Source of the DNA: an uncultured Acidobacteriaceae bacterium | Lineage (GTDB): Bacteria; Acidobacteriota; Terriglobia; Terriglobales; Acidobacteriaceae | Assembly (NCBI GenBank): GCA_963817305.1 | Contig: CAWFOD010000017.1 | Coordinates: 357,821 to 421,820, forward strand | DNA length: 64,000 nt | Direction: 5' to 3' | In this document: positions 6,925 to 56,052 of the stretch, piece by piece | Numbering within the stretch: position 1 is the stretch's first letter | Layout: the number at the start of each line of letters is the position of its first letter | Made by a program: the position numbers and the translations under genes | The notes under the pieces: generated by a model | Told to the model about the DNA's origin: nothing | The model's input: the letters and a program-made list of their open reading frames with translations, nothing else | The model's database searches: none

Positions 6925-8188
6925 ATGGAACAACTGAGTTACGGAGCATTCAGCGCGGACGTGCATCAGCGACAGTCCGGTCAGCGCGTGCCCATGCAGG
7001 TTTCCATCGAAGTCACCCGCCGCTGTCCGCTCGAGTGCCAGCACTGCTACAACAATCTTCCCATGGGCGATCAAGCCGCCCGCAGCCGTGAAATGACTAC
7101 CGAAGAGCATTTCAAAATGCTCGACGAACTGGTCGAAATGGATTGCTTCTGGCTTATCTACACTGGCGGCGAGATTTTCGCCCGCAAGGACTTTCTTGAG
7201 ATCTACACTCACGCCAAGCAAAAGGGCTTCCTGATTACGCTTTTCACCAACGGCACTCTTATCACCGAAAAGATTGCAGACTACCTGGTGGAATGGCCGC
7301 CCTTTGCCATCGAGATCACGCTCTACGGTCGCACCCGGGAAACCTATGAAGCCCTTACCCAAATCCCCGGCTCTTACGACCGCTGCCTGCGCGGAATCCG
7401 GCTCTTGCGCGAACGCGGATTGCCGGTCAAATTAAAGACCGTAGCTACTACGCATCAACAAACATGAAGTCTCCGCCATGCGGCAGTTTGCGGAAGAGGA
7501 GTTGGGCGTCGAGTTCAAGATGGATGGCCAGATCAATCCTCGGATTGACTGCTCTCAAAGCCCGCTGGCAGTGCGGCTTTCGCCGGAAGACGTGGTAGCT
7601 CTCGATATGCATGCTCCCAAGGGCGTGAGCGAATATCGCAGGTTGGCCAAAGATGAAATGGATCATCCTCCCAGCCTCTCGAAGAACGACACTGTGTATT
7701 TCTGCGGCGGAGGCCTCAATTCATTTGCCATTAATGCCTATGGAGAAATGGGAATTTGCGTAATTTCGCAGCAAGAGACGTTTGACATTCGCCGGGAAGG
7801 CCTGCAGCCCACCTGGGAGCATTCTCTGAAGGAGCTGCGCACCCGCAAACGCTCCCGCGTCACAAAGTGCATGCAGTGTCGCATTCAATCGCTCTGCGGA
7901 ATGTGTCCCGCCAATGGCGAAATGGAAAACGGCGACCGGGAGAGTCCAGTCGATTTTCTTTGCAACGTGGCACATCTGCGCGCAGCCGTGATCGGAGTTG
8001 AAATCCCGCAGCACGGAGAGTGCGAGTTCTGCGCTGGCGGTAGTCAGCACCAGGAGTTACTGGAGTCCGCGCGCCGTATCCAGACGAAAGAGATCGATGT
8101 AGACAGTTGGACCGGCAGGCAGCAAATTTTTCCGATTCTGAATAACGTCAGCGTGGCCGCCGGATGCGGTGGCTGTGGTAGTCACTGA
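6925..8188 (+). CDS. radical SAM/SPASM domain peptide-modifying enzyme; interrupted by a 1-nt insertion near 7447-7450 as sequenced
   Basis: ORF 6925-7467 has EVTRRCPLECQHCYNN (CxxxCxxC) and GGEIFARKD. ORF 7478-8188 continues the fold with SPASM-like Cys clusters (CGGGLNSFAINAYGEMGICV; CMQCRIQSLCGMC). Skipping one base gives ..KTVATRINKHEVSAMRQFAEEELGV.. Confidence 0.8.
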
Positions 8189-8212
8189 AAATAAAGCCAG
8201 AATCAAGGCCCT

Positions 8213-8380
8213 ATGAATCAGAAAACAAATCAAACCGAGGGCAAGAAAATCTACGAGTCGCCGAAACTGACGACTATCAGTCTCCGCCCGGAGGAAGCAG
8301 TTTTAGGCCATTGCAAAGTTGCCGGGACGGGGGGACCGGGCGGTATCTGTGGATTCACCTGTATGAACGCCGGATCCTAG
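8213..8380 (+). CDS. putative RiPP precursor peptide (55 aa, 3 Cys, C-terminal Ser)
   Basis: Below the ORF-track size cutoff. ATG 8213 to TAG 8378-8380 encodes MNQKTNQTEGKKIYESPKLTTISLRPEEAVLGHCKVAGTGGPGGICGFTCMNAGS. It lies 24 nt after the rSAM stop and 32 nt before the kinase-like gene, on the same strand. It contains a YxxPxL leader-like motif. Confidence 0.6.
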   Translation: MNQKTNQTEGKKIYESPKLTTISLRPEEAVLGHCKVAGTGGPGGICGFTCMNAGS

Positions 8381-8412
8381 CTGGTACTAATTCCCGGAGC
8401 CTGCGGTCGGAA

Positions 8413-9429
8413 ATGACGAGCCACCCTGTGCCGCGACTGACGAAACTCGACGATTCTCGTGCCGCACTTTACGGTGGCTTCTCCGTCGGCGGCGTATCTG
8501 TCCACCTTGCTGGTCAACGCCGCGCTGATGTTGCACTGGTCCCGCCTCTTCAGCCTTTTCACATTGACACAGGTGTTTCCGACATTCACGTTCGAGTTGA
8601 GTGGGTCGCGGGAATCGATTCATGCTGCGTTCCTCCACTGTTTGAATCCGGAGCTGTGTGGCGTGTGTACGAAGCGGAAGATAGCCTTCAGTTCGATTTC
8701 AACGTTCCCTTTCTCGGGTCGCAGCCCTACAAAAGGCTGATCGTAGACTCCCGCTTTCGCCAGGCGACGCTGCAGATGAATCAGCAATCGTTTGCGGCCG
8801 TACCCGGCGTTCCCGAGCCCTTAGAATATCCCCTCGACGAACTCCTCATCATGCACCGCCTCACCCAGGAGCCCGCGATCGAGCTGCACGGGGTCGGCAT
8901 CGTCGGCCCCAACGGGGCAAACAACTTATTCGTCGGCCATTCCGGAGCAGGGAAGAGCACCACCGCTCGCCTCTGGACCTCACTTCACGATGTTGACATC
9001 CTCAGCGACGACCGCATCATCGTTCGTGAACTTCCGGTCCGCGAACACCCGGTTCGCGAACACTCGGCTGAGGAAGATAAAATCCGTAGCAAAGCGTCTT
9101 ACGAAAGTAACCGCTTAGCAGACCCGAACCAGATCTACGTGTACGGCACCCCGTGGCATGGCGAAGCGCATTTCGCCCTCCCGCAGCGCGCTCCGCTGCA
9201 AAGAATTTTCGTTCTCGAACACGGCCACGGCAACATCCTCACCCGCCTCACGCGCAGCCAGGTGGTCGCCGAACTTTTCGCGCGTGCCTTCGTCCCCTTC
9301 CACCGTCACGAATACGTGGACCACGCCCTGAGCTTCCTGGAGCGCGTTGCCGATTCCGTCCCCTGCTATCGCTACTCCTTCGAGCCCGACGAGCGCGCCG
9401 TAGAAAAAATTCTTCAATTCAATGATTGA
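8413..9429 (+). CDS. HPr kinase-related (HprK C-terminal domain-like) P-loop protein
   Basis: ORF 8311-9429; the likely start MTSHPV is at 8413. LHGVGIVGPNGANNLFVGHSGAGKSTTARLW...LSDDRIIV is the HprK-like P-loop module. There is an internal 15-bp tandem duplication (PVREHPVREH, 9034-9063). The stop overlaps the next start (ATGATTGA). Confidence 0.75.
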   Translation: MTSHPVPRLTKLDDSRAALYGGFSVGGVSVHLAGQRRADVALVPPLQPFHIDTGVSDIHVRVEWVAGIDSCCVPPLFESGAVWRVYEAEDSLQFDFNVPFLGSQPYKRLIVDSRFRQATLQMNQQSFAAVPGVPEPLEYPLDELLIMHRLTQEPAIELHGVGIVGPNGANNLFVGHSGAGKSTTARLWTSLHDVDILSDDRIIVRELPVREHPVREHSAEEDKIRSKASYESNRLADPNQIYVYGTPWHGEAHFALPQRAPLQRIFVLEHGHGNILTRLTRSQVVAELFARAFVPFHRHEYVDHALSFLERVADSVPCYRYSFEPDERAVEKILQFND

Positions 9430-45437: not shown

Positions 45438-45833
45438 TTAGCTTGGCTTCGGGAACAGGTAATTGACCACGATGTATCCTAGACCCAAAACGTCGGCAGT
45501 GGTAGTTCCTATGAAAGCGATTAGAACCGAATTATCGAGATGAAAACCCAAAACATGAAAACCTAAAACATGAAAACCTTCCAACATCAGAACGGCCACT
45601 ACTGAGATGAGCCATCCAGCGCAGAGAGGGAAAAGCTTTTTTGCCCAGCGGTCGCGATGTCCAGTGTTTACACTGAGCGCATTATTCTCTAGGCGTAGCC
45701 TATCCAATTCTATCTTTTGGGTTTCAATCTGGTAGAACTCCCCGGCCGCTGGCGCAGCCGGGGCCACAACGATGCTATCGACCGTGAGGGCGGCGGGTTG
45801 ATTACCCTCTAACGGCGACTGGTTGTCTGTCAT
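45438..45833 (-). CDS. small membrane protein, candidate toxin partner of the Panacea-domain protein
   Basis: 131 aa. Its start overlaps the upstream gene by 32 nt. Two C-terminal hydrophobic helices. Internal 15-bp x3 repeat (GFHVLGFHVLGFHL). Confidence 0.5.
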   Translation of the reverse strand: MTDNQSPLEGNQPAALTVDSIVVAPAAPAAGEFYQIETQKIELDRLRLENNALSVNTGHRDRWAKKLFPLCAGWLISVVAVLMLEGFHVLGFHVLGFHLDNSVLIAFIGTTTADVLGLGYIVVNYLFPKPS

Positions 45834-46335
45834 GCTGGGATGCGGCGAGTCGCTCGAAATATTCCTTTATCACGTTGTCCGGAATATCCGTATTGCGAAC
45901 GTCCCTGTCGTAAACCTGACTCCACGGCGAATTTTCCGCGTGAGTCATGCTCGATAATTGACTGGCTGAATAACGACCATACAACTGCCAGACCCTAGCG
46001 ATGATTTGACGGGCGAGCATGTCTCGCGCAGGATCACCGCTATTAAGGCGATAGGCTCTAGTGACTACCTGTCCGTTCTCGAAATAAGCTTCGCCTGCTG
46101 GCGATGTGATTGGTCCACTCCCGTAACGCCTGAACTCGCTATACAGAGAAGGGATCACAGGCCCCCATTGCCACGCTTCGACACGTTCATCAAGAAGCCG
46201 TTCTCCAGTAATTGCCATGTACCAGCCGTAGGCAAAATAAACCAGCTTTTGCAACTGCATTGGAGTGAGCTGTTTGCCTTCGTTCTTGGCGAGCTCTAGG
46301 AACTCATTAGCTACTTGTTTTGAGGTGTACGGCAT
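45802..46335 (-). CDS. Panacea (DUF4065, SocA/GepA-like) domain antitoxin-type protein
   Basis: 177 aa. MPYTSKQVANEFLELAKNEGKQLTPMQLQKLVYFAYGWYMAITGERLLDERVEAWQWGPVIPSLYSEFRRYG matches the DUF4065 pattern closely. Confidence 0.8.
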   Translation of the reverse strand: MPYTSKQVANEFLELAKNEGKQLTPMQLQKLVYFAYGWYMAITGERLLDERVEAWQWGPVIPSLYSEFRRYGSGPITSPAGEAYFENGQVVTRAYRLNSGDPARDMLARQIIARVWQLYGRYSASQLSSMTHAENSPWSQVYDRDVRNTDIPDNVIKEYFERLAASQHDRQPVAVRG

Positions 46336-46458: not shown

Positions 46459-47312
46459 TCATGCGGCTTTTAGCGTTGCAGTCGAACGTAGATGTACCAA
46501 TTCCCCCAAACTCCAAACGTGGTCCGCGAGGCCCGCTTCCATCGCAGGAGTGCCCCGCAATGTTTGATGAATGCGGCAAAAATTGTAGTACACATGATAG
46601 ATGGCAACCATATGGCAGTGGTTTTCAAACTTCTTCGAAAATGCCTTCGTCAAGCGTGTAAACCGTCGGACACCCATCCGCAAATTGAGATTTTGCCTCC
46701 CCACATAACTCGTGGAAATGTACTGGCGATCAGGGTCACCGCTCAAGATACCAGTGCAAATACCAATGCACTGCGCAGGGCTGTAGCGGCTATCAGGATT
46801 ATCGGCGGGAGAGCCGTACAACTTTATCAGCATCGCGTAATCCACTTCATTCCGAAAGCACCTTCGACAGCTTCCGCGTAAGCGCGGTGACCGTCAGTCG
46901 TGATCTGAATGCGCGTGGTCACACGCGACGCCAAATCCTCCATGAATTTGCAGGCCCACGACGCATCGCGCCCGCCACACAGGTACGAGAGAATCAGCTT
47001 GGAATCTGCGTCAATCGCGGTCCAAGTCCATACGCTCCCTGCTCCCGCTCCTTGCTTTGATTCAGGAACGTTCTTCTCTTTCGCGTAGCAGAAACTCCAC
47101 ACTTCATCACATTGCACGCGCTGGACGCGGACGCCACGCACTGCAGAATCGTGAAACGCCGCGCACGCCGCGCCCATGTCACGAATGAGTTTGAGAACCG
47201 CGTCCTTACAGACGCCAGTCATACGCACCGTGGAACGGATGCTGTTTCCCTCTATCAAGGCTCCGATTACCTGTGGGCGACGTTCATTTGTTAGGCGGTT
47301 CATGACAATCAT
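46459..47312 (-). pseudogene. IS1-family-like DDE transposase, split by a frameshift near 46845-46855
   Basis: ORF 46827-47312 has an HTH, then ..VQCDEVWSFCYAKEKNV..WTWTAIDADSKL..ITTDGHRAYAEAVEGAFG. ORF 46459-46845 has ..DYAMLIKLYG..RQNLNLRMGVRRFTRLTKAFSKKFENH... One base is missing relative to an intact frame. Confidence 0.75.
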
Positions 47313-47396: not shown

Positions 47397-47630
47397 TTAG
47401 AAATACTAAGGGCCATCGACCCTGGATAGGCTTGCCGGCATGCCCAGAGCGAATGGCCCGAAAGGTGGTTCAGATGATAAGAAGTTTCGCCCCTAAAAAG
47501 GGCTAAGGGCAAAGGAAACTCCCTACACGATCTGCCAGAGCGGGGGCGTTCCAGACGTGGTGCGTCCCCCAATTTGGCTTTATCAAATATACCACGAAAC
47601 GGGCCGATTTTCAATAACGAGGTTAAGGTC

Positions 47631-48167
47631 ATGAGCAACGAACAGAATCCATTTGAAGCTGCAATTGCCGCGCTAGAAGCACGTCGTGCGCAGGTTAATG
47701 CGGAGATCGATGCGGACGTTGCCAAGCTGCGCGAGATCGGAGAACGCATGTCTGGTATGGCCCTAACATCTGGTGCAACGCCGAGCACGCCAGCCAAGAT
47801 CGAAAAGGACACGTTTTTCAATATGACGTTGCCAGATGCTGCCAAGAAGTTTCTCGCAATGTCTAACAGGAAGACGCAAACTACGAATGCGATTATTGAC
47901 GCCCTTGAAAAGGGTGGCCTGAAAAAGACTACCTATGCATCGATGTACGCTAGCCTGAGCCGTCGCGAAAATAATGTAGGCGACATCGTGAACGTAAATG
48001 GCGACTGGGGGCTTCCTGAGTGGTACGGGGCTAAACCAAAACCCAAAAAACGCAGTGCTGTGTCACTTAACCCTAAAGACTTCGAGGACGACGACGCGGC
48101 GATTGCAGAACAACACGACCAGCAGCTACGAGACGAGGAAGAATTGAAGGTCAACACTGAAACCTAG
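47631..48167 (+). CDS. hypothetical protein (cargo of the IS1-like element)
   Basis: ORF 47574-48167. ATG at 47631 after a GAGG RBS (MSNEQNPFEAAIAALEARRAQ..). Acidic C-terminus. Confidence 0.5.
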   Translation: MSNEQNPFEAAIAALEARRAQVNAEIDADVAKLREIGERMSGMALTSGATPSTPAKIEKDTFFNMTLPDAAKKFLAMSNRKTQTTNAIIDALEKGGLKKTTYASMYASLSRRENNVGDIVNVNGDWGLPEWYGAKPKPKKRSAVSLNPKDFEDDDAAIAEQHDQQLRDEEELKVNTET

Positions 48168-48403
48168 CTCGGCTCGGCCTTTTCCGCCTTCCACCTTACC
48201 CTAGCAGCTTGGCTTGCAATCTCCCTTTTGCGCTCGGGACTCAGTTTTTCCGCTCGGCGTTTTCCGCCGACCTTTCCGCCTAGCTTCCCGAGGGCTACAG
48301 CCGCCGGATTCTTTTTCTTAGCCTTCAATGGTGCGCCTGTCGCGATCTCCACAACCCTCAGCGCATTCTGTGCGAAATCTCTCTTGCTTGACCGTTTAAC
48401 CAT
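48164..48403 (-). CDS. small basic protein (79 aa), phage/plasmid-type KGG..RW tail
   Basis: NPAAVALGKLGGKVGGKRRAEKLSPERKREIASQAARVRW is a motif I recall from mobile-element proteins; this is from memory only. Confidence 0.45.
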   Translation of the reverse strand: MVKRSSKRDFAQNALRVVEIATGAPLKAKKKNPAAVALGKLGGKVGGKRRAEKLSPERKREIASQAARVRWKAEKAEPS

Positions 48404-48571: not shown

Positions 48572-50755
48572 TCAATCCCCCGCCACCGGCTCACCCACTT
48601 CCGGTTTCGGAGCTGCAGCGATTCCACCGTTCGGCTTGCCCAACGCGCCCAGCGGAATAAATCCATTTTCCGCCACCGCAGGTTTTTCTTTCAGCACAAC
48701 TTCACGATACAGCGAAGCCATGCGCGCGTTGTAAGCCTCATCATTTTTCTGCGGTCCGCGATGTCCCGGAATCGGAGTCTCGGAGTGATCGACCGCCAAA
48801 GCCGCCTTCGCATCCCGTGCCCGCTTCTTCTCCTCGCGCGCATTCTTCGCGATGCCCAGCTTGTCGAGATCGTGCTGCAGTTCGTTGGTGACGATGTCCT
48901 CACGCAACAGCAGCGAGTGCGCCTCGTCCTCCATCTTCACTTTCTTTCCGCCGGCAAAAATCTCGTGCCGTCCATGCTCTTCGTACCACTTGGTAAGCGT
49001 GGCCGTCATGTGCATCTTCTCGATAATGTTTCTCCAGCCCACGCCCGTGTTGTAAGCGCAGAATGAAATCTCGCCCTCCTGCGTCGCATAAGGAATAATG
49101 CACTGCTCGGTTCTGCGGAAGTCATAGTTGAACAAATCCTGGAACCACATTCCCGCGATGAACAGGAAATTCCAGCGATCGGTTGTACGCCGCTTCATCA
49201 CATCCTCGACCGTCCGGTCCGGCCCAACTTTGCCGTAGTTCTTTCCCGTGATGTGATAGTTCTTGTCGAACTTCTTCAGCAGATCCATCAGCTTGAAATG
49301 TGTCGGCGATTGGAACGGATCGTAATTCTTCATCAGGCACAGCGCCATGCCAAACCCGGTCAAGAATTTTCCGCGCGACGCATCGTTCACCTTGGCGATG
49401 TCTTTCGCCAGTTGATCCCCCGCCAAAAACGCGGTCACCGGCACGGCCTCTTTGGTTTCCTTATCAATCATCACCGCCATCCCCGTCCCGCAATTCGGGT
49501 GACAACCGCAGGATAGTTGGCCCCAGTCGTTTTTTGCGTCGTTGGCGTGCATTAGATCTGCCCAGTCGCTGAATGTTCCCATGAAGGAAATGGGGAACCA
49601 GTCGCGGCTGGGTTCGCCTAATCCGGTTTGATTTTTTACGTCGTGCGCCAGGTGAGAGAGCGTGTAGCGCTGGGCCTGGCGGCGATCGTCGGTGACGGCT
49701 TCGTCGCGTCCGGTGAAGCTTACTGGTTGGAAACTCAGGAAGCTGATCGTCTTCGGATTGTCGAGCGCGAACTTGATGATGCGTCCGACTTGTTCGTTGT
49801 TGATGCCGTTAACTATGGTTACGACCGGAACGATTTCTACTCCGGCTTTGTGCAAGTTCTCGATCGCTTTTAATTTCACATCGAACAAATTTCCGACCAT
49901 GCGGTGCGCGTTGGCAGCGTTTCCGATGCCATCGAATTGCAAGTACGCGTAACGCATTCCTGCTTCGACTGCCTGCTGGCAGAATTCAAAACTTTTTGCG
50001 AATTCAATTCCATTCGTTGCTGCTTGCACGGAGTTGTATCCGACTTTGCGCGCGTAGCGCACGGCGTCCAGGAAATATGGAGACAACGTAGGCTCGCCGC
50101 CGGAAAACTGAACGCTCATCTGACGTCGCGGCTTGATGGTAATCGCGTTGTCGAGCATCGTCTTGATTTCTTCCCACTGCAGTTCGTGTACGAAGCCGAC
50201 CTGGTTTGCGTCCATGAAGCAGGGATCGCACATCATGTTGCAGCGGTTGGTGAGATCGATGGTCAGCACGGAGCCGCGTCCATACTTCACGGTGGAGGAA
50301 CCGTGATGGTGAAGCTTCTCGTCGTTATGCGCGACGATGTCGCGTCCGGGGAAAACATCTTCGAGATGCTTCGAGAAATCGGTGTCGATCGACATCACGT
50401 CTTCGAAGTGGCCGTGCTTCGGACAATCTTTCACCATCAGAATTTTTCCGTCGCGCTCGACGATGGTGGCCTTGATCTCGCCGATTTTTTCGTTCATCAA
50501 GACTTCGTGCGGAAGTTTGCCATCGAGAATCTGCTGACGGATTTCGGGCACACACTTCGGGCAAAGAGAATCGGTGGAGCGCGGCCAGCCGAGCGGCGGC
50601 TTGGATTTTTCGTAGGACTTGAGCAGAGGCTTGTCGGACCATTTCGGGGTTGGGGACGCACCTGGGTTGATGCGGTTCAAACGATCGAACACTACCCAAG
50701 CGCCTTTGGCGGCGACTGTGACTGCTTTCTCTACGTACTTAATCGGCTTGCGCAT
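48572..50755 (-). CDS. radical SAM protein, tetraether-lipid-synthase (Tes / GDGT-MAS, COG1964)-like
   Basis: 727 aa. N-terminal Zn-ribbon-like TDSLCPKC...VKDCPKHGHFED, then IDLTNRCNMMCDPCF (CxxxCxxC) and VQFSGGEPTLSP..ATNGIEFAK. The radical SAM call is firm; the Tes-like call rests on my recollection of the family pattern. Confidence 0.75.
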   Translation of the reverse strand: MRKPIKYVEKAVTVAAKGAWVVFDRLNRINPGASPTPKWSDKPLLKSYEKSKPPLGWPRSTDSLCPKCVPEIRQQILDGKLPHEVLMNEKIGEIKATIVERDGKILMVKDCPKHGHFEDVMSIDTDFSKHLEDVFPGRDIVAHNDEKLHHHGSSTVKYGRGSVLTIDLTNRCNMMCDPCFMDANQVGFVHELQWEEIKTMLDNAITIKPRRQMSVQFSGGEPTLSPYFLDAVRYARKVGYNSVQAATNGIEFAKSFEFCQQAVEAGMRYAYLQFDGIGNAANAHRMVGNLFDVKLKAIENLHKAGVEIVPVVTIVNGINNEQVGRIIKFALDNPKTISFLSFQPVSFTGRDEAVTDDRRQAQRYTLSHLAHDVKNQTGLGEPSRDWFPISFMGTFSDWADLMHANDAKNDWGQLSCGCHPNCGTGMAVMIDKETKEAVPVTAFLAGDQLAKDIAKVNDASRGKFLTGFGMALCLMKNYDPFQSPTHFKLMDLLKKFDKNYHITGKNYGKVGPDRTVEDVMKRRTTDRWNFLFIAGMWFQDLFNYDFRRTEQCIIPYATQEGEISFCAYNTGVGWRNIIEKMHMTATLTKWYEEHGRHEIFAGGKKVKMEDEAHSLLLREDIVTNELQHDLDKLGIAKNAREEKKRARDAKAALAVDHSETPIPGHRGPQKNDEAYNARMASLYREVVLKEKPAVAENGFIPLGALGKPNGGIAAAPKPEVGEPVAGD

Positions 50756-51098
50756 ATTAGCTTCTGGCTCCTGGCTTCTAGCTCTTCGCTTGAATCTCCG
50801 GTTTCCGGGGCTGGCTTCAGCTTAATGAACGCGTTCGCCTGGCGCGGAACCTGAGATTCCAACGAATAGCTCGAGTTCTCCCAAGGAGTTGAACCTGGTT
50901 GATAAGACCCTGGTTTGTACACGTTTCCCTGGGAGTTGTCTGTGGCTATCCTATGGGAGGAGAAGAGGATAAGCACCTTTATCCCAACGAATGGGCGAAA
51001 AACGGGGTTTAGTGGTTGGATGGGGGATTGGATGGCGGTAAGTGATTGAAAGGAAAAGGCCCGATAAATGTGACACCCGGATGTGAGTGCCCGCCGGC

Positions 51099-51746
51099 CT
51101 ATGGAACCCGGATGTGGATAATCCGATCCACGACGCCGTTGGACTGACCGTGAATACAGCGCACGTTTAGCTTACTCATCTCTTCTGGGTCGCGGTATGT
51201 GCCATTCTGATCGAGCCGCTGCGCGCTGTAGTACTCGGGGTAGCAGGAAGCGATCACAAATTCGACAAACTGGCGGGGCCCAGGCACGCCTGAGACTGCA
51301 AACCTCGTCCTAGGAAACCCGCTGATGTGCATGTGGGACTCGTGGTGCAGTACCCCGGCTGCGTACTGTTGGGTGTAATCAAACCTTAGCCAGGGGATGA
51401 ACACGTCGGCGAAGTCGGGTAGAGGTCCGGGAGACAGAAGATCTTCCTCTTCCATGGGCAATTGAGCCTTGTAGAACGCGAGGCGCACCATCCGGATATT
51501 GTCGTTACCGTCAAATTCATATAAGAGCTGAAAGACGGAGCCGTCATCTGCGCACTGGAAGCTGTACTGTTTCTCTTCGACAACGGATCGGACCTTTTCA
51601 TAATTCACTGGCTCTCTAATAATGCCTCCCGAGTAGCGGTTCCAAGCTATTCGGGATCCGCTCCGGCAGAATCGGGGATTGACGAGCAGCGATTTCCAGT
51701 CCCAGAAACAATCTCGAACTTGGGATTCGACGTCGGCCGGACTCAC
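51099..51746 (-). CDS. hypothetical protein coupled to the SF1 helicase (possibly DUF2290-like)
   Basis: 215 aa. Its GTG start overlaps the helicase stop (GTGA). His-rich motif GVLHHESHMHISGFP. No domain I can verify by eye. Confidence 0.55.
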   Translation of the reverse strand: MSPADVESQVRDCFWDWKSLLVNPRFCRSGSRIAWNRYSGGIIREPVNYEKVRSVVEEKQYSFQCADDGSVFQLLYEFDGNDNIRMVRLAFYKAQLPMEEEDLLSPGPLPDFADVFIPWLRFDYTQQYAAGVLHHESHMHISGFPRTRFAVSGVPGPRQFVEFVIASCYPEYYSAQRLDQNGTYRDPEEMSKLNVRCIHGQSNGVVDRIIHIRVP

Positions 51747-53899
51747 TTTGCAGCCTTCTGAAGCAGCTTGAGCAGGGTCTTTCGGTCACCTTCGCTCAGA
51801 TCCGCTAGGGCTCCGGGAGCCAGAGCCTTGAGGCTTTCGACCGCCGCTTTAGCCGTCTTGACGGCTCGCCGCCGCCGCGTCGTCTCAGACGCGTCGAGCT
51901 TTCGGATTTTATCCATGTCGGGAAAAACGAACTTGAACCGAGGAATCTCATCAAGAATCTGTTTAAGCTCTTTTATTGCTTCGACCATTTTTCGGCCGGT
52001 GCCGGTTATTCTTACCCATCCCTTCGATCTGGATATGGACGTGAAGGCTCGATTGCGAGTCTCGATCTCCTCGGCGAAATCGTACAGCGATTGGAAACTC
52101 AATATATAAACGACTGGTGCCTCGTTTCCTTTCGCTCTGAACACCGTCGAAAGAGTGACCATGCCGGCCTCGGCGAAATCCGAGGCGTCGTCCACGAGTC
52201 CCGGGATAGTGGAAGCAATGCTCAGCTGCATCAGCATGCTTTGCAGCTGCATCATATAATCCTTCGCGCGCCTTGAATCCAGCGAGATGACCACAATCTG
52301 TTCGGGCGCAACCGCCTCATCTTTTATGTCCGAAGAGATGGAATTGGCAACCCACTGTAGCTCTGCTGCCAAGGTATTGAAGCTCTTTCCGGAGACCAGT
52401 TTCTGTTTGCCCGTGTACATCTGAGCAATTCGGCTTGGACTGTTTTCCGGTGGACGAAAAAGAACAACCTGGCTGCCCTGGTCAAGGTGCCCTGATTCAA
52501 TTTCGTATCCGACCGCCTTCCACGAGGTTTCGTCCCCCAGCATCTGAACTGGGCCCCGGGGGTTGTGGATTCCCAGCCCGACCGCGTGCGCGAGCATAAG
52601 TACCGTCTGAGGGCACCGATAGGATTTTAGGAGAACCAGGTCTCGGTCCATACCCTCGTCCTCGTCGACGTCCAGCGAAACGAGGGGCTTACCTTGCTCG
52701 TCGACGCCAAAAAGTTCTGCCGGATCGGGGATTTCGAGGGAGGCTAGGCTTTGCAGTTCATCATAGGCCCAATAAATGGCGTGGGGAGGCCTAGACAGCT
52801 TGTACAGAATGGGGAAGAACTCTTTGGGGAAGTCTTGGGCCTCGTCTACTAGGATGTAGTCGTACTCAGGATCGATTCTTTGTTGAAGAGCCGCTAAGCA
52901 GCAAGCCCGGAATGGTGTAAGGGAGTCCTGAGCCTTGGCCGACCGAAAATCCAGCGCCCTCGAGCCCTGTCTTTGAGTCAGATCATAGTACACTCCGGGT
53001 CGTGATCGGCCACCCCAGGCGTGGCGTATGTGGAGGATGTCCCAATCCGGATCGACGTCGCTGTAAAAGCGGAAAAAGCGAGTCACGAGATTGCGGGCTT
53101 GGTTGTAGAGGCTTTGTGTATTGAACGTTAGGAGGAGCTTTTTGTCGGGGAAGTGATGGTGAATATTAGCTGCCTTCATTGCCAGGAGGACGGTCTTTCC
53201 AGTGCCCGCGAGGCCGCGGATGCGTTGCGGCCCGGGCGGTATTTGGATGGCGACTTTGTTCTGCTGTTCGTCGAGCAATGCTATATCCGTATCTAGCATT
53301 TTTATCGCGCTGCCGAGGGTGTCCGCCGTTCTCGCCGTCCCGCCCGGGTTTCTTGTCAGAGGGATGGCGGTTTGAAGGACCGATCTTGCGAGTCGCCACT
53401 GTTGGCTGTCGAGCGGCTGATTAAGTCTTAGGAGGTGTTCGTTGGCACCCTCGCCTCCGGACCAAATGACATTCGCAAGTGGTCCGAATTTCTTGCAGAA
53501 TTCCGATTTTGTGCATAAAGGGAGGCCCACGACCGGTTTCGGGTCGAGGCGCCGGCGGAGGTCGCGCACTTTATCGAATCTTGTCCGGAGCTCTGTGGCC
53601 AGGTCGTCAATAACGACGCCCGGAGAGTCAATTTCTATTTCGTGCTTTCCTTCCTGAATCCACCATGTGTCGTCTTCGATAGCAACGATGCGCTCAAGCG
53701 TGATATCGAAACACTTCACCACGATGGGCTGGTAGAGCTGAAGTAGGAAGACTAGGTCCGGCGTCCCAGAAACACCCACGATGGGATATTTGTAGTAACA
53801 GATGCCTTCGGCTTTGCCAGCAGCTTCCTCTATCCACTGGAAGGTCGTCTTAACAGGAAGATCGCCAGCGAATCCCGAGAGGGACGCTAGAAATTCCAT
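51743..53899 (-). CDS. superfamily 1 (UvrD/Rep-like) helicase with an N-terminal nuclease-like (NERD/PD-(D/E)xK-like) region
   Basis: 718 aa. Walker A GLAGTGKT, motif II ILVDEAQDF, YRCPQTV, STVFRAKGNEAPVVYIL, RNRAFTSISRSKGWVRI. The N-terminal ..TPDLVFLL..IVVKCFD.. resembles a D..(E/x)xK nuclease core; that part is inference. Confidence 0.8.
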   Translation of the reverse strand: MEFLASLSGFAGDLPVKTTFQWIEEAAGKAEGICYYKYPIVGVSGTPDLVFLLQLYQPIVVKCFDITLERIVAIEDDTWWIQEGKHEIEIDSPGVVIDDLATELRTRFDKVRDLRRRLDPKPVVGLPLCTKSEFCKKFGPLANVIWSGGEGANEHLLRLNQPLDSQQWRLARSVLQTAIPLTRNPGGTARTADTLGSAIKMLDTDIALLDEQQNKVAIQIPPGPQRIRGLAGTGKTVLLAMKAANIHHHFPDKKLLLTFNTQSLYNQARNLVTRFFRFYSDVDPDWDILHIRHAWGGRSRPGVYYDLTQRQGSRALDFRSAKAQDSLTPFRACCLAALQQRIDPEYDYILVDEAQDFPKEFFPILYKLSRPPHAIYWAYDELQSLASLEIPDPAELFGVDEQGKPLVSLDVDEDEGMDRDLVLLKSYRCPQTVLMLAHAVGLGIHNPRGPVQMLGDETSWKAVGYEIESGHLDQGSQVVLFRPPENSPSRIAQMYTGKQKLVSGKSFNTLAAELQWVANSISSDIKDEAVAPEQIVVISLDSRRAKDYMMQLQSMLMQLSIASTIPGLVDDASDFAEAGMVTLSTVFRAKGNEAPVVYILSFQSLYDFAEEIETRNRAFTSISRSKGWVRITGTGRKMVEAIKELKQILDEIPRFKFVFPDMDKIRKLDASETTRRRRAVKTAKAAVESLKALAPGALADLSEGDRKTLLKLLQKAAK

Positions 53900-54083
53900 T
53901 CGCTTTTCCTTTCGTATCAGCGCTAATGTCTGAACAGAAATTGTTACGCCCTTGCGCCGGGTGTGTCCAGCAAGACCTGCGCCCCCGCCGCATGTTGCAG
54001 AGGATAGATCAACGGCTCAGCGAAGTAGAAGGGAACTTGCGCCGGTTCGGAGTGACAGGGGTTGAAGAAAGTGAGTGAGGCCG

Positions 54084-54114
54084 TACGCGGCGCTGAAGCG
54101 CCGCTCTTCCACGG
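54084..54114. repeat. REP-like element core, copy 3
   Basis: TACGCGGCGCTGAAGCGCCGCTCTTCCACGG, followed by ttgtgctggctgtcgtggcgtct, which is shared with copy 4. Confidence 0.85.
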
Positions 54115-54359
54115 TTGTGCTGGCTGTCGTGGCGTCTTTCATCGCTTCGGGTCGTGTGTTGAAAGGCAGAATCAAGGTCAAGGGCGGCGGACGGGAGTGT
54201 CTGTCCCACACGAGAGTTTCGAGCTGCGCTCGAATGGACAGCCGGTTGCGGCTGTCCCTACATGTGCGTGTCTTGGCCTAAAGCCCGGTTTTTTTGATCT
54301 TGATCGGCAATTCAGTCGGCCCTGTTCGGAATGACATCGGTTATATGAGTGGGTGGGGT

Positions 54360-54390
54360 TACGCGGCGCTGAAGCGCCGCTCTTCCACGG
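54360..54390. repeat. REP-like element core, copy 4
   Basis: TACGCGGCGCTGAAGCGCCGCTCTTCCACGG, followed by ttgtgctggcagtcgtggcgtct. Confidence 0.85.
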
Positions 54391-54519
54391 TTGTGCTGGC
54401 AGTCGTGGCGTCTCACGCGGTTTTCCATTTTCTTTCCTACATCTCCGCCAGTGAACTGGCGGGCTATTTTCGGGCGGTCCCTACGGGACCTTTGGGTCGC
54501 TGGCTTCGGCGCGGGCTTC

Positions 54520-55074
54520 TTATGGATGGCGTTCTTGCTCCGGATAATCTTCCTCCGGATAATCTTCCTCTGGATAATCTTCCTCTGGATAATCCTCGTC
54601 TGGATAGTCTTCGTCGATGCTGGCGTGGAGGGTTAGGGGAGGGTCGAGTTGGTGCCAGGCTTCGCGGTATTTTTCGAGGCGCATGATGCGGGCGTTGCGA
54701 TGGGGATAGAAGCGGAGCATGGGTTGGGGAGTGCAGACTTCGACGGGGATGATGTACCAGATGTCGAGCGGGACGACGTGGGCGGCGATGAAATCGATGT
54801 CGCGCTTGGTGTAGACGGCGCGGCGTTTGCCGACGGTGTAGGTGGCGCGGGTTTCATAGGCATCGGCGCGGAGGGAGTCGGTGCACTTGATCTGTATCCG
54901 GAAGAGGTGAACTGCTGGTTGGGGGCGGTTGTCGAGGATGAAATCGTAACGTTCGGAGTCTCCCCAGGGCTTGGAGATGGCGAAGCAGCGCTGGCTGGCC
55001 TGGTAGAGGAATGCGGCTTCGGAGCGCTCGCCGGTGCGTTTGGTGTTGGGGCGGAGGGGATCGCGCTTCGGCAT
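54520..55074 (-). CDS. PD-(D/E)XK endonuclease (group I intron-associated type, PDDEXK_5-like) with a C-terminal (D/E)EDYP x5 repeat
   Basis: 184 aa. TGERSEAAFLYQASQRCFAISKPWGDSERYDFILDN...FRIQIKCT matches the family pattern. The tail is DEDYPDEDYPEEDYPEEDYPEEDYPEQERHP. Confidence 0.65.
   Translation of the reverse strand: MPKRDPLRPNTKRTGERSEAAFLYQASQRCFAISKPWGDSERYDFILDNRPQPAVHLFRIQIKCTDSLRADAYETRATYTVGKRRAVYTKRDIDFIAAHVVPLDIWYIIPVEVCTPQPMLRFYPHRNARIMRLEKYREAWHQLDPPLTLHASIDEDYPDEDYPEEDYPEEDYPEEDYPEQERHP
54541..54615. repeat. 15-bp tandem repeat x5 (coding, acidic pentapeptide)
   Basis: (c/t)ggataatcttcctc repeated five times; the last two copies are diverged. Confidence 0.9.
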
Positions 55075-55990: not shown

Positions 55991-56052
55991 GGGGCTAAAG
56001 CCCGGAAAATTTCCGGGCACTCAACGCGGCGCTGAAGCGCCGCTCTTCCACG
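55991..56052. repeat. bipartite REP-like element, copy 5
   Basis: GGGGCTAAAGCCC hairpin, ~20-nt linker, then ACGCGGCGCTGAAGCGCCGCTCTTCCACGG. Confidence 0.85.

Follow-up and report, generated by a model that had tools for sequence, protein, structure and literature searches.

The window considered here, a stretch of 64,000 nucleotides (nt) from an uncultured Acidobacteriaceae bacterium (GenBank assembly GCA_963817305.1, contig CAWFOD010000017.1, positions 357,821 to 421,820), carries on its minus strand two overlapping genes, which encode a superfamily 1 (SF1) helicase of 718 amino acids (aa) and a DUF2290 protein of 215 aa. This pair is probably a divergent environmental (Candidatus Sulfotelmatobacter/Acidobacteriaceae-type) representative of the Helicase+DUF2290 anti-phage system, in which the helicase would act as motor and sensor coupled to DUF2290 as effector. 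Both open reading frames (ORFs) had been picked out from the bare letters in an earlier reading (the original prediction), and their coordinates as well as their GTGA overlap proved exact. The layout of the locus is as follows.

51743 to 53899, minus strand: SF1 helicase gene, 718 aa, ORF with ATG start
51099 to 51746, minus strand: DUF2290 gene, 215 aa, presumed effector, ORF with GTG start
51743 to 51746, minus strand: GTGA stop/start overlap seen in the sequence, presumably coupling translation of the two genes
51060 to 53978, minus strand: accessory cassette of promoter region, helicase gene and DUF2290 gene plus ~40 nt of 3' flank, delimited by blastn against relatives
53940 to 53969, minus strand: candidate sigma-70-like promoter TGGACA-18-AACAAT, located some 40 nt before the helicase ATG, from a consensus scan (weak)

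The TGA stop of the helicase gene and the GTG start of the DUF2290 gene share the tetranucleotide GTGA and, hence, overlap by 4 nt; Shine-Dalgarno-like sequences (AAGGA and AAGG) are located 7 nt upstream of both starts. Using blastn, homology with the pair-less related loci L006, L007, L009 and L011 was found to resume at window positions 51058/51059, 40 nt past the DUF2290 stop, and this breakpoint is sharp and recurrent among relatives. The cassette itself (53978-51100) is shared with metagenomic locus L099 at 80% nucleotide identity, and its stretch 53971-51211 with locus L002 at 71%. The promoter candidate falls within the part conserved with both loci, while the consensus scan of the region returned 3 sites against 1.7 expected, which makes for weak evidence. 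An Rfam scan of 44-58 kb gave no matches. Overall, the pair probably represents a self-contained cassette of approximately 2.9 kb with its own (candidate) promoter, residing in a hypervariable chromosomal slot. Both ORFs are genuine genes under strong purifying selection, since the ratio of non-synonymous to synonymous substitutions (dN/dS) amounts to 0.034 in the helicase and 0.047 in DUF2290 when compared with the L099 orthologues (approximate values, as dS is near saturation), more than 1000 homologues of the helicase were found, and a DUF2290 profile search of 1.84 billion representatives yielded 902 clusters at E <= 1e-3, nearly all of them stand-alone proteins of about 200-260 aa.

The helicase and its DUF2290 partner

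Assignment of the two proteins to the Helicase+DUF2290 system is based on Pfam and on profile scores from the hidden Markov model (HMM) library of PADLOC. The original prediction had guessed that the smaller protein belongs to DUF2290, and this was borne out: Pfam PF10053 matches residues 52-181 with 34.1 bits against a cutoff of 25, and the PADLOC DUF2290 models PDLC02999 and PDLC02998 score approximately 43 bits. Likewise, the suspected resemblance of the pair to Helicase+DUF2290 is reflected in a score of 437 bits (E 3e-131) for helicase residues 167-714 on PDLC03002, the system-specific Helicase model, where the match spans profile positions 148-705 of 707 and leaves the N-terminal 147 positions unmatched. 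Because of these three scores and the adjacent, same-strand order of the genes, the pair can be placed in this system. For the present clade, a defence function is suggested by its family.

The archetype of the system (Rst_HelicaseDUF2290 in DefenseFinder) originates from a P4-satellite hotspot of Klebsiella pneumoniae SB5961 and blocks phage T7 (Rousset et al. 2022, PMC9122126), and deletion of the copy in Pseudomonas aeruginosa MPAO1 has phage-specific effects. In the literature searched, DUF2290 appears in no paper's title or abstract and no description of a mechanism was found. Archetype and cassette agree in families, gene order and strand, the genes overlapping or abutting; in both, an SF1 helicase of about 720 aa accompanies a protein of about 215-235 aa, and the surroundings are variable and mobile. 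The overlapping arrangement is also seen in an archetype-like pair from an E. coli IncI/K plasmid, for which the PADLOC models named above give 988 bits (helicase) and 277 bits (DUF2290). In contrast to the P4/P2 hotspot of the archetype, the host of the cassette is an Acidobacteriota chromosome. Furthermore, the enterobacterial helicase has a shorter and much more eroded N-terminus, whereas the cassette clade keeps a well-preserved domain at this position, and the E. coli DUF2290 protein lacks H140, which is present in the cassette protein.

Three parts of the helicase are distinguished in the following.

53450 to 53899, minus strand: NERD-derived domain with degenerate active site, helicase residues 1-150, from hhalign, pairwise alignment and residue counts
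51920 to 53302, minus strand: SF1 ATPase/translocase core, helicase residues ~200-660, from the ORF, Pfam, alignment, AlphaFold2 (AF2) model and Foldseek
51746 to 51919, minus strand: helical basic C-terminal tail, helicase residues 661-718, from the AF2 model and E. coli alignment

All motifs quoted in the original prediction (GLAGTGKT, VDEAQDF, YRCP, FRAKGNEAP and SRSKGW for the helicase, HHESHMH for its partner) are found in the translations and fall on invariant columns of 57 homologues. In the helicase, Walker A occupies residues 229-236, Walker B 351-357, YRCP 427-430, RAKGNE 588-593 and SRSKGW 623-628; invariant positions are G232-T236, D352/E353/Q355/D356, Y427-C429, R588-E593 and R624/K626. 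To judge from these residues, the SF1 ATPase motor is intact. The AF2 model of the helicase (predicted local distance difference test, pLDDT, 85; predicted template modelling score, pTM, 0.79) begins with an alpha/beta domain of residues 1-150 (pLDDT ~90), from which a poorly ordered linker (180-187) leads to the SF1 core; the basic tail follows, in which DSSP assigns helices to residues 674-691, 695-699 and 703-717. Alignment with the E. coli plasmid helicase extends to residue 713, so the tail is conserved there.

Pfam UvrD_C_2 and UvrD-helicase matches lie above cutoff, with PF00580 reaching 26 bits without any single stretch passing, and PcrA was the sole match of a PDB sequence search with the helicase (E 3e-6). 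Assignment to SF1 is secure. The narrower designation as UvrD/Rep-type (SF1A), as given in the original prediction, is not established, because Foldseek places SLFN11/SLFN14, Dna2 and Upf1 at the top, with PcrA and UvrD (and also RecD) at similar E-values. Human SLFN11 and SLFN14, antiviral and replication-stress factors, are the best full-length matches (E 2e-15 to 1e-12, approximately 670-690 columns) and have in common with the cassette helicase that a nuclease-type domain at the N-terminus precedes the SF1 helicase. However, TM-scores amount to 0.32-0.40 and identity to 11-13%, and the SF1 core is probably what accounts for the match. NERD and the N-terminal nuclease of the Schlafen proteins belong to different fold families. 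Weak partial PADLOC matches were also obtained for GajB of Gabija and for Nhi, which likewise are SF1 motors in anti-phage defence; these matches reach 14-24 bits over short stretches, and the helicase is a member of neither.

Conservation in DUF2290 was computed on 140 representatives with a pairwise identity of at most 50%. Here, Y76, R121 and H138 are 100% conserved, H134 and R148 99%, D68 98%, D123 96% (otherwise E) and H140 92%. The HHESHMH sequence corresponds to conserved H134-x3-H138-x-H140, with H135 being variable. Taken together, this D/Y/R/D/H/H/H/R set looks like a catalytic or metal site. The AF2 model of DUF2290 is confident (pLDDT 85, pTM 0.84), with the lowest values of the core in the His-rich loop (pLDDT 70-78). 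In the structural check proposed in the original prediction, the helicase resembles SF1 folds; the DUF2290 model has no Foldseek match in the PDB (best E 0.17, TM <= 0.28) or in BFVD (best E 0.05). A sequence search of DUF2290 against solved structures in the PDB returned nothing meaningful either, and PHROGs contains no matching family. Hence, as far as can be judged from the model, DUF2290 appears to be an orphan fold that has no solved or viral structural relative.

The NERD-derived domain and the occurrence of DUF2290

A nuclease-related domain (NERD) or PD-(D/E)xK nuclease core had been suspected in the N-terminal 150 residues of the helicase, and of this suspicion the homology holds up, while the catalytic ExK does not. 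In direct searches, Pfam, including NERD (PF08378) and PDDEXK, gave no match at E <= 10 on the N-termini of 24 family members, and a PDB sequence search with the domain returned nothing meaningful. Homology emerged only via intermediates, namely plasmid-borne relatives of about 30-33% identity that align from residue 9 and are annotated by NCBI as NERD helicases; two such relatives pass Pfam NERD PF08378 with 27.5 and 39.7 bits. As hhalign of the N-terminal family against the N-termini of these NERD-helicases gives a probability of 99.8% (E 7.6e-29, 152 columns), i.e. a profile-profile match with Pfam-positive NERD domains, the N-terminus is assigned as NERD-derived at the profile level.

Pairwise comparison with a Haloarcula NERD-helicase indicates that PD...IE(C/V)K of the NERD-helicases has turned into PD...VKCF in the cassette helicase, which keeps D48 but carries K62 at the position of the NERD Glu and F64 at that of the NERD Lys. 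Among 114 full-length members of the clade, ExK has as a rule given way to (K/R)-C-x: the catalytic Glu position is occupied by K in 54, R in 51 and other residues in 9, and is never acidic; none has Lys at the catalytic Lys position; and the first Asp position (D48) is D in 86, E in 27 and H in 1. Judged by these residues, ExK is lost and the domain is catalytically degenerate.

This degeneration is mirrored by the gene neighbourhood. In a survey of plasmid, IMG/VR and metagenome loci, the residues aligned with D...ExK were located in each helicase and DUF2290 was sought by its family HMM. For 59 distinct helicases the following counts were obtained.

NERD ExK intact: 0 with DUF2290 downstream, 6 without DUF2290
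NERD ExK degenerate: 48 with DUF2290 downstream, 5 without DUF2290

An intact ExK and a DUF2290 neighbour hence co-occur in 0 of the 59 helicases (Fisher's exact test for ExK state against DUF2290 neighbour, p = 1e-5, not corrected for phylogeny). In the 48 of 53 degenerate-NERD helicases with a DUF2290 gene, the latter begins at -3 to +7 nt past the helicase stop, and a junction of this length is kept in nearly all related loci, those from distant phyla included.

At least one of the five degenerate-NERD exceptions has an alternative overlapping ORF. In locus L112 (1180-4237), a related helicase with the degenerate NERD strand IIIIDVF and no DUF2290 is followed by an unrelated ORF of 278 aa, which overlaps the helicase stop codon by 17 nt, belongs to no Pfam family and reaches 0.1% in hhalign against DUF2290. 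This ORF may be an alternative partner, and L112 a sister two-gene system, which would hint at partner swapping. Helicases similar to that of L112 are also present in L113 and L114.

The solo NERD-helicases (PGAP 'nuclease-related domain-containing DEAD/DEAH box helicase'; PADLOC candidate C3a187 'NERD+UvrD') are homologous to the cassette helicase from end to end (residues 9-661, 33% identity, E 8e-105), with the same domain order and homologous N-terminal domains. In contrast to the cassette helicase with its K-C-F at the ExK strand and its adjoining DUF2290 gene, they keep D...ExK, pass Pfam NERD at 27-40 bits and lack a DUF2290 neighbour. Copies with intact D...ExK were located in L086 (3962-6124), L087 (3995-6181), L089 (3956-6076), L090 (2896-5049), L091 (2971-5166) and L176. 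Such genes reside on haloarchaeal, Deinococcus and cyanobacterial plasmids, often adjoining insertion sequence (IS) elements or replication/partition genes. As they score 265-389 bits on the PADLOC Helicase model of Helicase+DUF2290, they could be mislabelled by annotation using HMMs only.

Proposed mode of action and rival explanations

For the Helicase+DUF2290 reading, the following course of events is conceivable. Translational coupling would provide helicase and DUF2290 in a fixed proportion, and both would form a complex in which the dead NERD domain may serve the helicase as DNA-binding or docking module. By ATP-driven translocation, the helicase would survey DNA and recognise a phage-specific structure, e.g. 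free ends or replication intermediates, and would then activate or deliver the effector DUF2290, most plausibly a metal-dependent hydrolase or nuclease acting at its His/Asp site in place of the lost NERD nuclease. The complex and the roles of DNA-sensing motor and effector are proposed by analogy with the solo NERD-helicases and with Hachiman HamAB (PMC12278908), likewise a two-gene system in which a helicase appears to sense the state of DNA and to control a separate effector. Hachiman differs from the cassette in that HamB belongs to another helicase family and HamA (DUF1837) is a PD-(D/E)xK nuclease unrelated to DUF2290; the PADLOC Hachiman models gave no match on the cassette. More tentatively, and with rather less than even confidence, DUF2290 could have a catalytic fold that has so far escaped recognition (with metal-dependent nuclease or hydrolase activity at Asp68/Tyr76/Arg121/Asp123/His134/His138/His140/Arg148) and could have been recruited in trans to replace the ancestral NERD nuclease, with the dead NERD domain kept for DNA binding or docking. 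If so, Helicase+DUF2290 would be an 'effector-swapped' descendant of single-protein NERD-helicase immunity, with sister lineages such as L112 using other overlapping partners.

Several points weigh against this account. Identity between the cassette and the archetype-like E. coli pair is approximately 34% for the helicase and 26% for DUF2290, the PADLOC helicase profile leaves the N-terminal 166 residues of the helicase uncovered, and the NCBIfam STM2767-family DEAD/DEAH helicase model (NF053713) gives 117.7 bits against a cutoff of 550, which falls short of membership. A lactococcal Helicase+DUF2290 homologue conferred no protection against the phages tested (PMC11381338). With regard to the effector as an enzyme, DUF2290 has no fold or sequence relative of known chemistry. 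Finally, the association of ExK state with DUF2290 carries no correction for phylogeny, and all six helicases with intact ExK may belong to a single clade.

The absence of any detectable enzyme fold in DUF2290 also lends some weight to a reversal of roles, in which the helicase motor itself would be the effector, for instance by removing replication proteins of the phage, by unwinding intermediates or by consuming ATP, and DUF2290 a non-catalytic sensor, regulator or inhibitor gating the helicase. Identity across phyla of about 50% for the helicase versus 32-45% for DUF2290 would fit a fast-evolving sensor contacting phage factors, and the low pLDDT of the His-rich loop points the same way. 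However, the near-invariant residue set over the 140 representatives looks catalytic or metal-binding rather than like a variable recognition surface, and DUF2290 is present precisely where the nuclease in cis is gone. Such a reversal, the main rival of the preferred reading, is considered rather unlikely.

Mobile contexts are common among relatives of the pair. Plasmids, conjugative as well as mobilizable, and 4 IMG/VR contigs carry the pair, and in other loci it adjoins a Tn7-like transposon or HNH/DUF559/NB-ARC genes or lies near a PIN toxin-antitoxin (TA) pair; altogether, homologues are present on 54 plasmid records but on no complete phage record. A function for the mobile element (plasmid or transposon maintenance, exclusion of competitors, or addiction) instead of phage defence proper could hence be envisaged, especially as relatives on plasmids adjoin replication, partition, stability and TA genes and the lactococcal homologue was inactive. 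Nevertheless, the interior of the cassette holds no integrase, transposase or replication gene, the nearest IS lies 4 kb off beyond the Tes-like gene, and the archetype protects against T7. Location on plasmids, moreover, does not discriminate, since defence systems are routinely plasmid-borne. Overall, this explanation is improbable.

Accessory status of the pair was judged at the flanks of the neighbouring Tes-like gene in 80 species-level relatives, where this gene is conserved at 75-98% identity in Candidatus Sulfotelmatobacter, Acidobacteriaceae and Terriglobales. Within the fetched flanks (upstream flank of at least 3.5 kb in 72), helicase or DUF2290 stands next to the Tes-like gene in 0 of the 80 species, which speaks against the core-genome housekeeping synteny that the original prediction had named as its possible undoing. 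The pair is accessory and its slot hypervariable. That the two genes are a vertically inherited housekeeping helicase for DNA repair or recombination with an accessory subunit is thereby largely refuted and hardly credible: although the motor motifs are of SF1/UvrD kind and the pair occupies this locus in both L002 and L099, having diverged to a degree similar to the flanks, it is missing there even from the closest relative L006 with 87-92% identical flanks, only a handful of helicase homologues exceed 75% identity versus at least 80 for the Tes-like gene, and in L003 and L179-L181 the pair lies in an entirely different context. This distribution together with dN/dS excludes both the housekeeping and the pseudogene reading.

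With Helicase+DUF2290 membership as the preferred reading, the cassette brings Acidobacteriota, a poorly studied phylum that is dominant in soil, into the range of a defence system that is validated by experiment but mechanistically opaque. In itself, the find holds little that is unusual: it is a further accessory cassette of a described defence system, and not a new kind. What it adds are the mutual exclusion of intact NERD and DUF2290, an orphan DUF2290 fold with a defined site for mutation, and the hypervariable slot.

The slot and its surroundings

L099 and L002 hold the cassette in the same slot as the window. In L006, the slot (7534-9175) is filled by three ORFs that share a strand and encode 227, 154 and 161 aa, with an overlap between two of them; a family was found for the last one alone (DUF7689 at 106 bits), and the cluster is a possible uncharacterised module. 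Cargo in other relatives comprises PIN, GIY-YIG, GNAT and DUF3800 genes or large secreted proteins, and further cargo could be obtained by mining Ca. Sulfotelmatobacter-type genomes at this position next to the Tes-like gene.

Of the neighbours named in the original prediction, the PD-(D/E)XK endonuclease was identified as a PDDEXK_5 gene (54520-55074, minus strand) with 61.7 bits, which is also hit by PADLOC 'homing endonuclease' (34.8 bits) and phrog_5018. Five 15-nt repeats in tandem encode the (EDYPE)n at its C-terminus. That PDDEXK_5 forms a third component of the system was rejected, as it is missing from L099, L003, L179-L181 and plasmid systems and is present in 13 relatives that lack the pair. 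On the other side, the Tes-like gene (48572-50755, minus strand) is indeed a radical SAM gene (Radical_SAM plus HMPTM zinc ribbon), scoring 316 bits on the NCBIfam tetraether lipid synthase Tes model, below the equivalog cutoff of 450. The segment 45000-48500 has the lowest GC content in the window (51.1%) and contains a SocA/Panacea antitoxin-like gene (45802-46335; 69 bits, phrog_1281 150 bits) and two small ORFs without family (47574-48167 and 48164-48403). The presumed IS1-like element corresponds to a two-ORF IS-like element (46459-47312), for which weak Pfam matches to IS1 and IS240 DDE were obtained, all of them below cutoff; like PDDEXK_5, it is a neighbour and not part of the system.

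Base composition and repeats had been taken as marks of a distinct segment. The GC content of the pair is in fact lower (54.7% versus a window mean of 56.7 +/- 2.1%), but marginally so, at the 14th percentile and about 1 standard deviation below the mean. Low GC as a sign of foreign origin was rejected as too weak, being equal to that of the conserved Tes-like gene (54.8%). The flank described as dense in repetitive extragenic palindromic (REP) elements comprises the following feature.

54084 to 54413, strand not assigned: upstream intergenic DNA with two 54-nt REP-like units, flank outside the system, from direct repeat family D2 and a palindrome scan

Copies of the 54-nt unit are located at 54084-54137 and 54360-54413, and the unit recurs at 56023. 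The REP-like palindrome GCGGCGCTGAAGCGCCGC has 7 sites in the window (35256, 36355, 54087, 54363, 56026, 58107 and 60743) versus 0.04 expected. The repeats were dismissed as module boundary or element ends, since the family is genome-wide and also present in the pair-less L006.

A change in strand composition was also observed at the locus. The plus-strand GC skew at third codon positions (GC3 skew) left of ~45 kb ranges from -0.09 to -0.54 (most values -0.2 to -0.5) and right of 54.5 kb from +0.54 to +0.66, in every gene on either strand, while in the block 45.8-53.9 kb (SocA, IS, Tes-like, DUF2290, helicase) it is near zero (0 to 0.22). The PDDEXK_5 gene (+0.64) follows the local chromosome, unlike the adjacent cassette. 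The cumulative-skew minimum at ~49-50 kb is origin-like by convention. Neither a DnaA-box cluster nor an E. coli-type dif site was detected at the switch, these searches being uninformative. Within the DUF2290 gene, at its 3' end (51113-51121, minus strand), there is a single perfect DnaA-box 9-mer, TTATCCACA; with 14 unclustered matches of at most one mismatch in the window versus 7.6 expected, it probably arose by chance. As the change of skew sign at the Tes-like locus recurs in L002, L006, L009-L012 and L020 (though not in L008, L033 and L058), the hypervariable slot coincides with a conserved replication-skew inflection.

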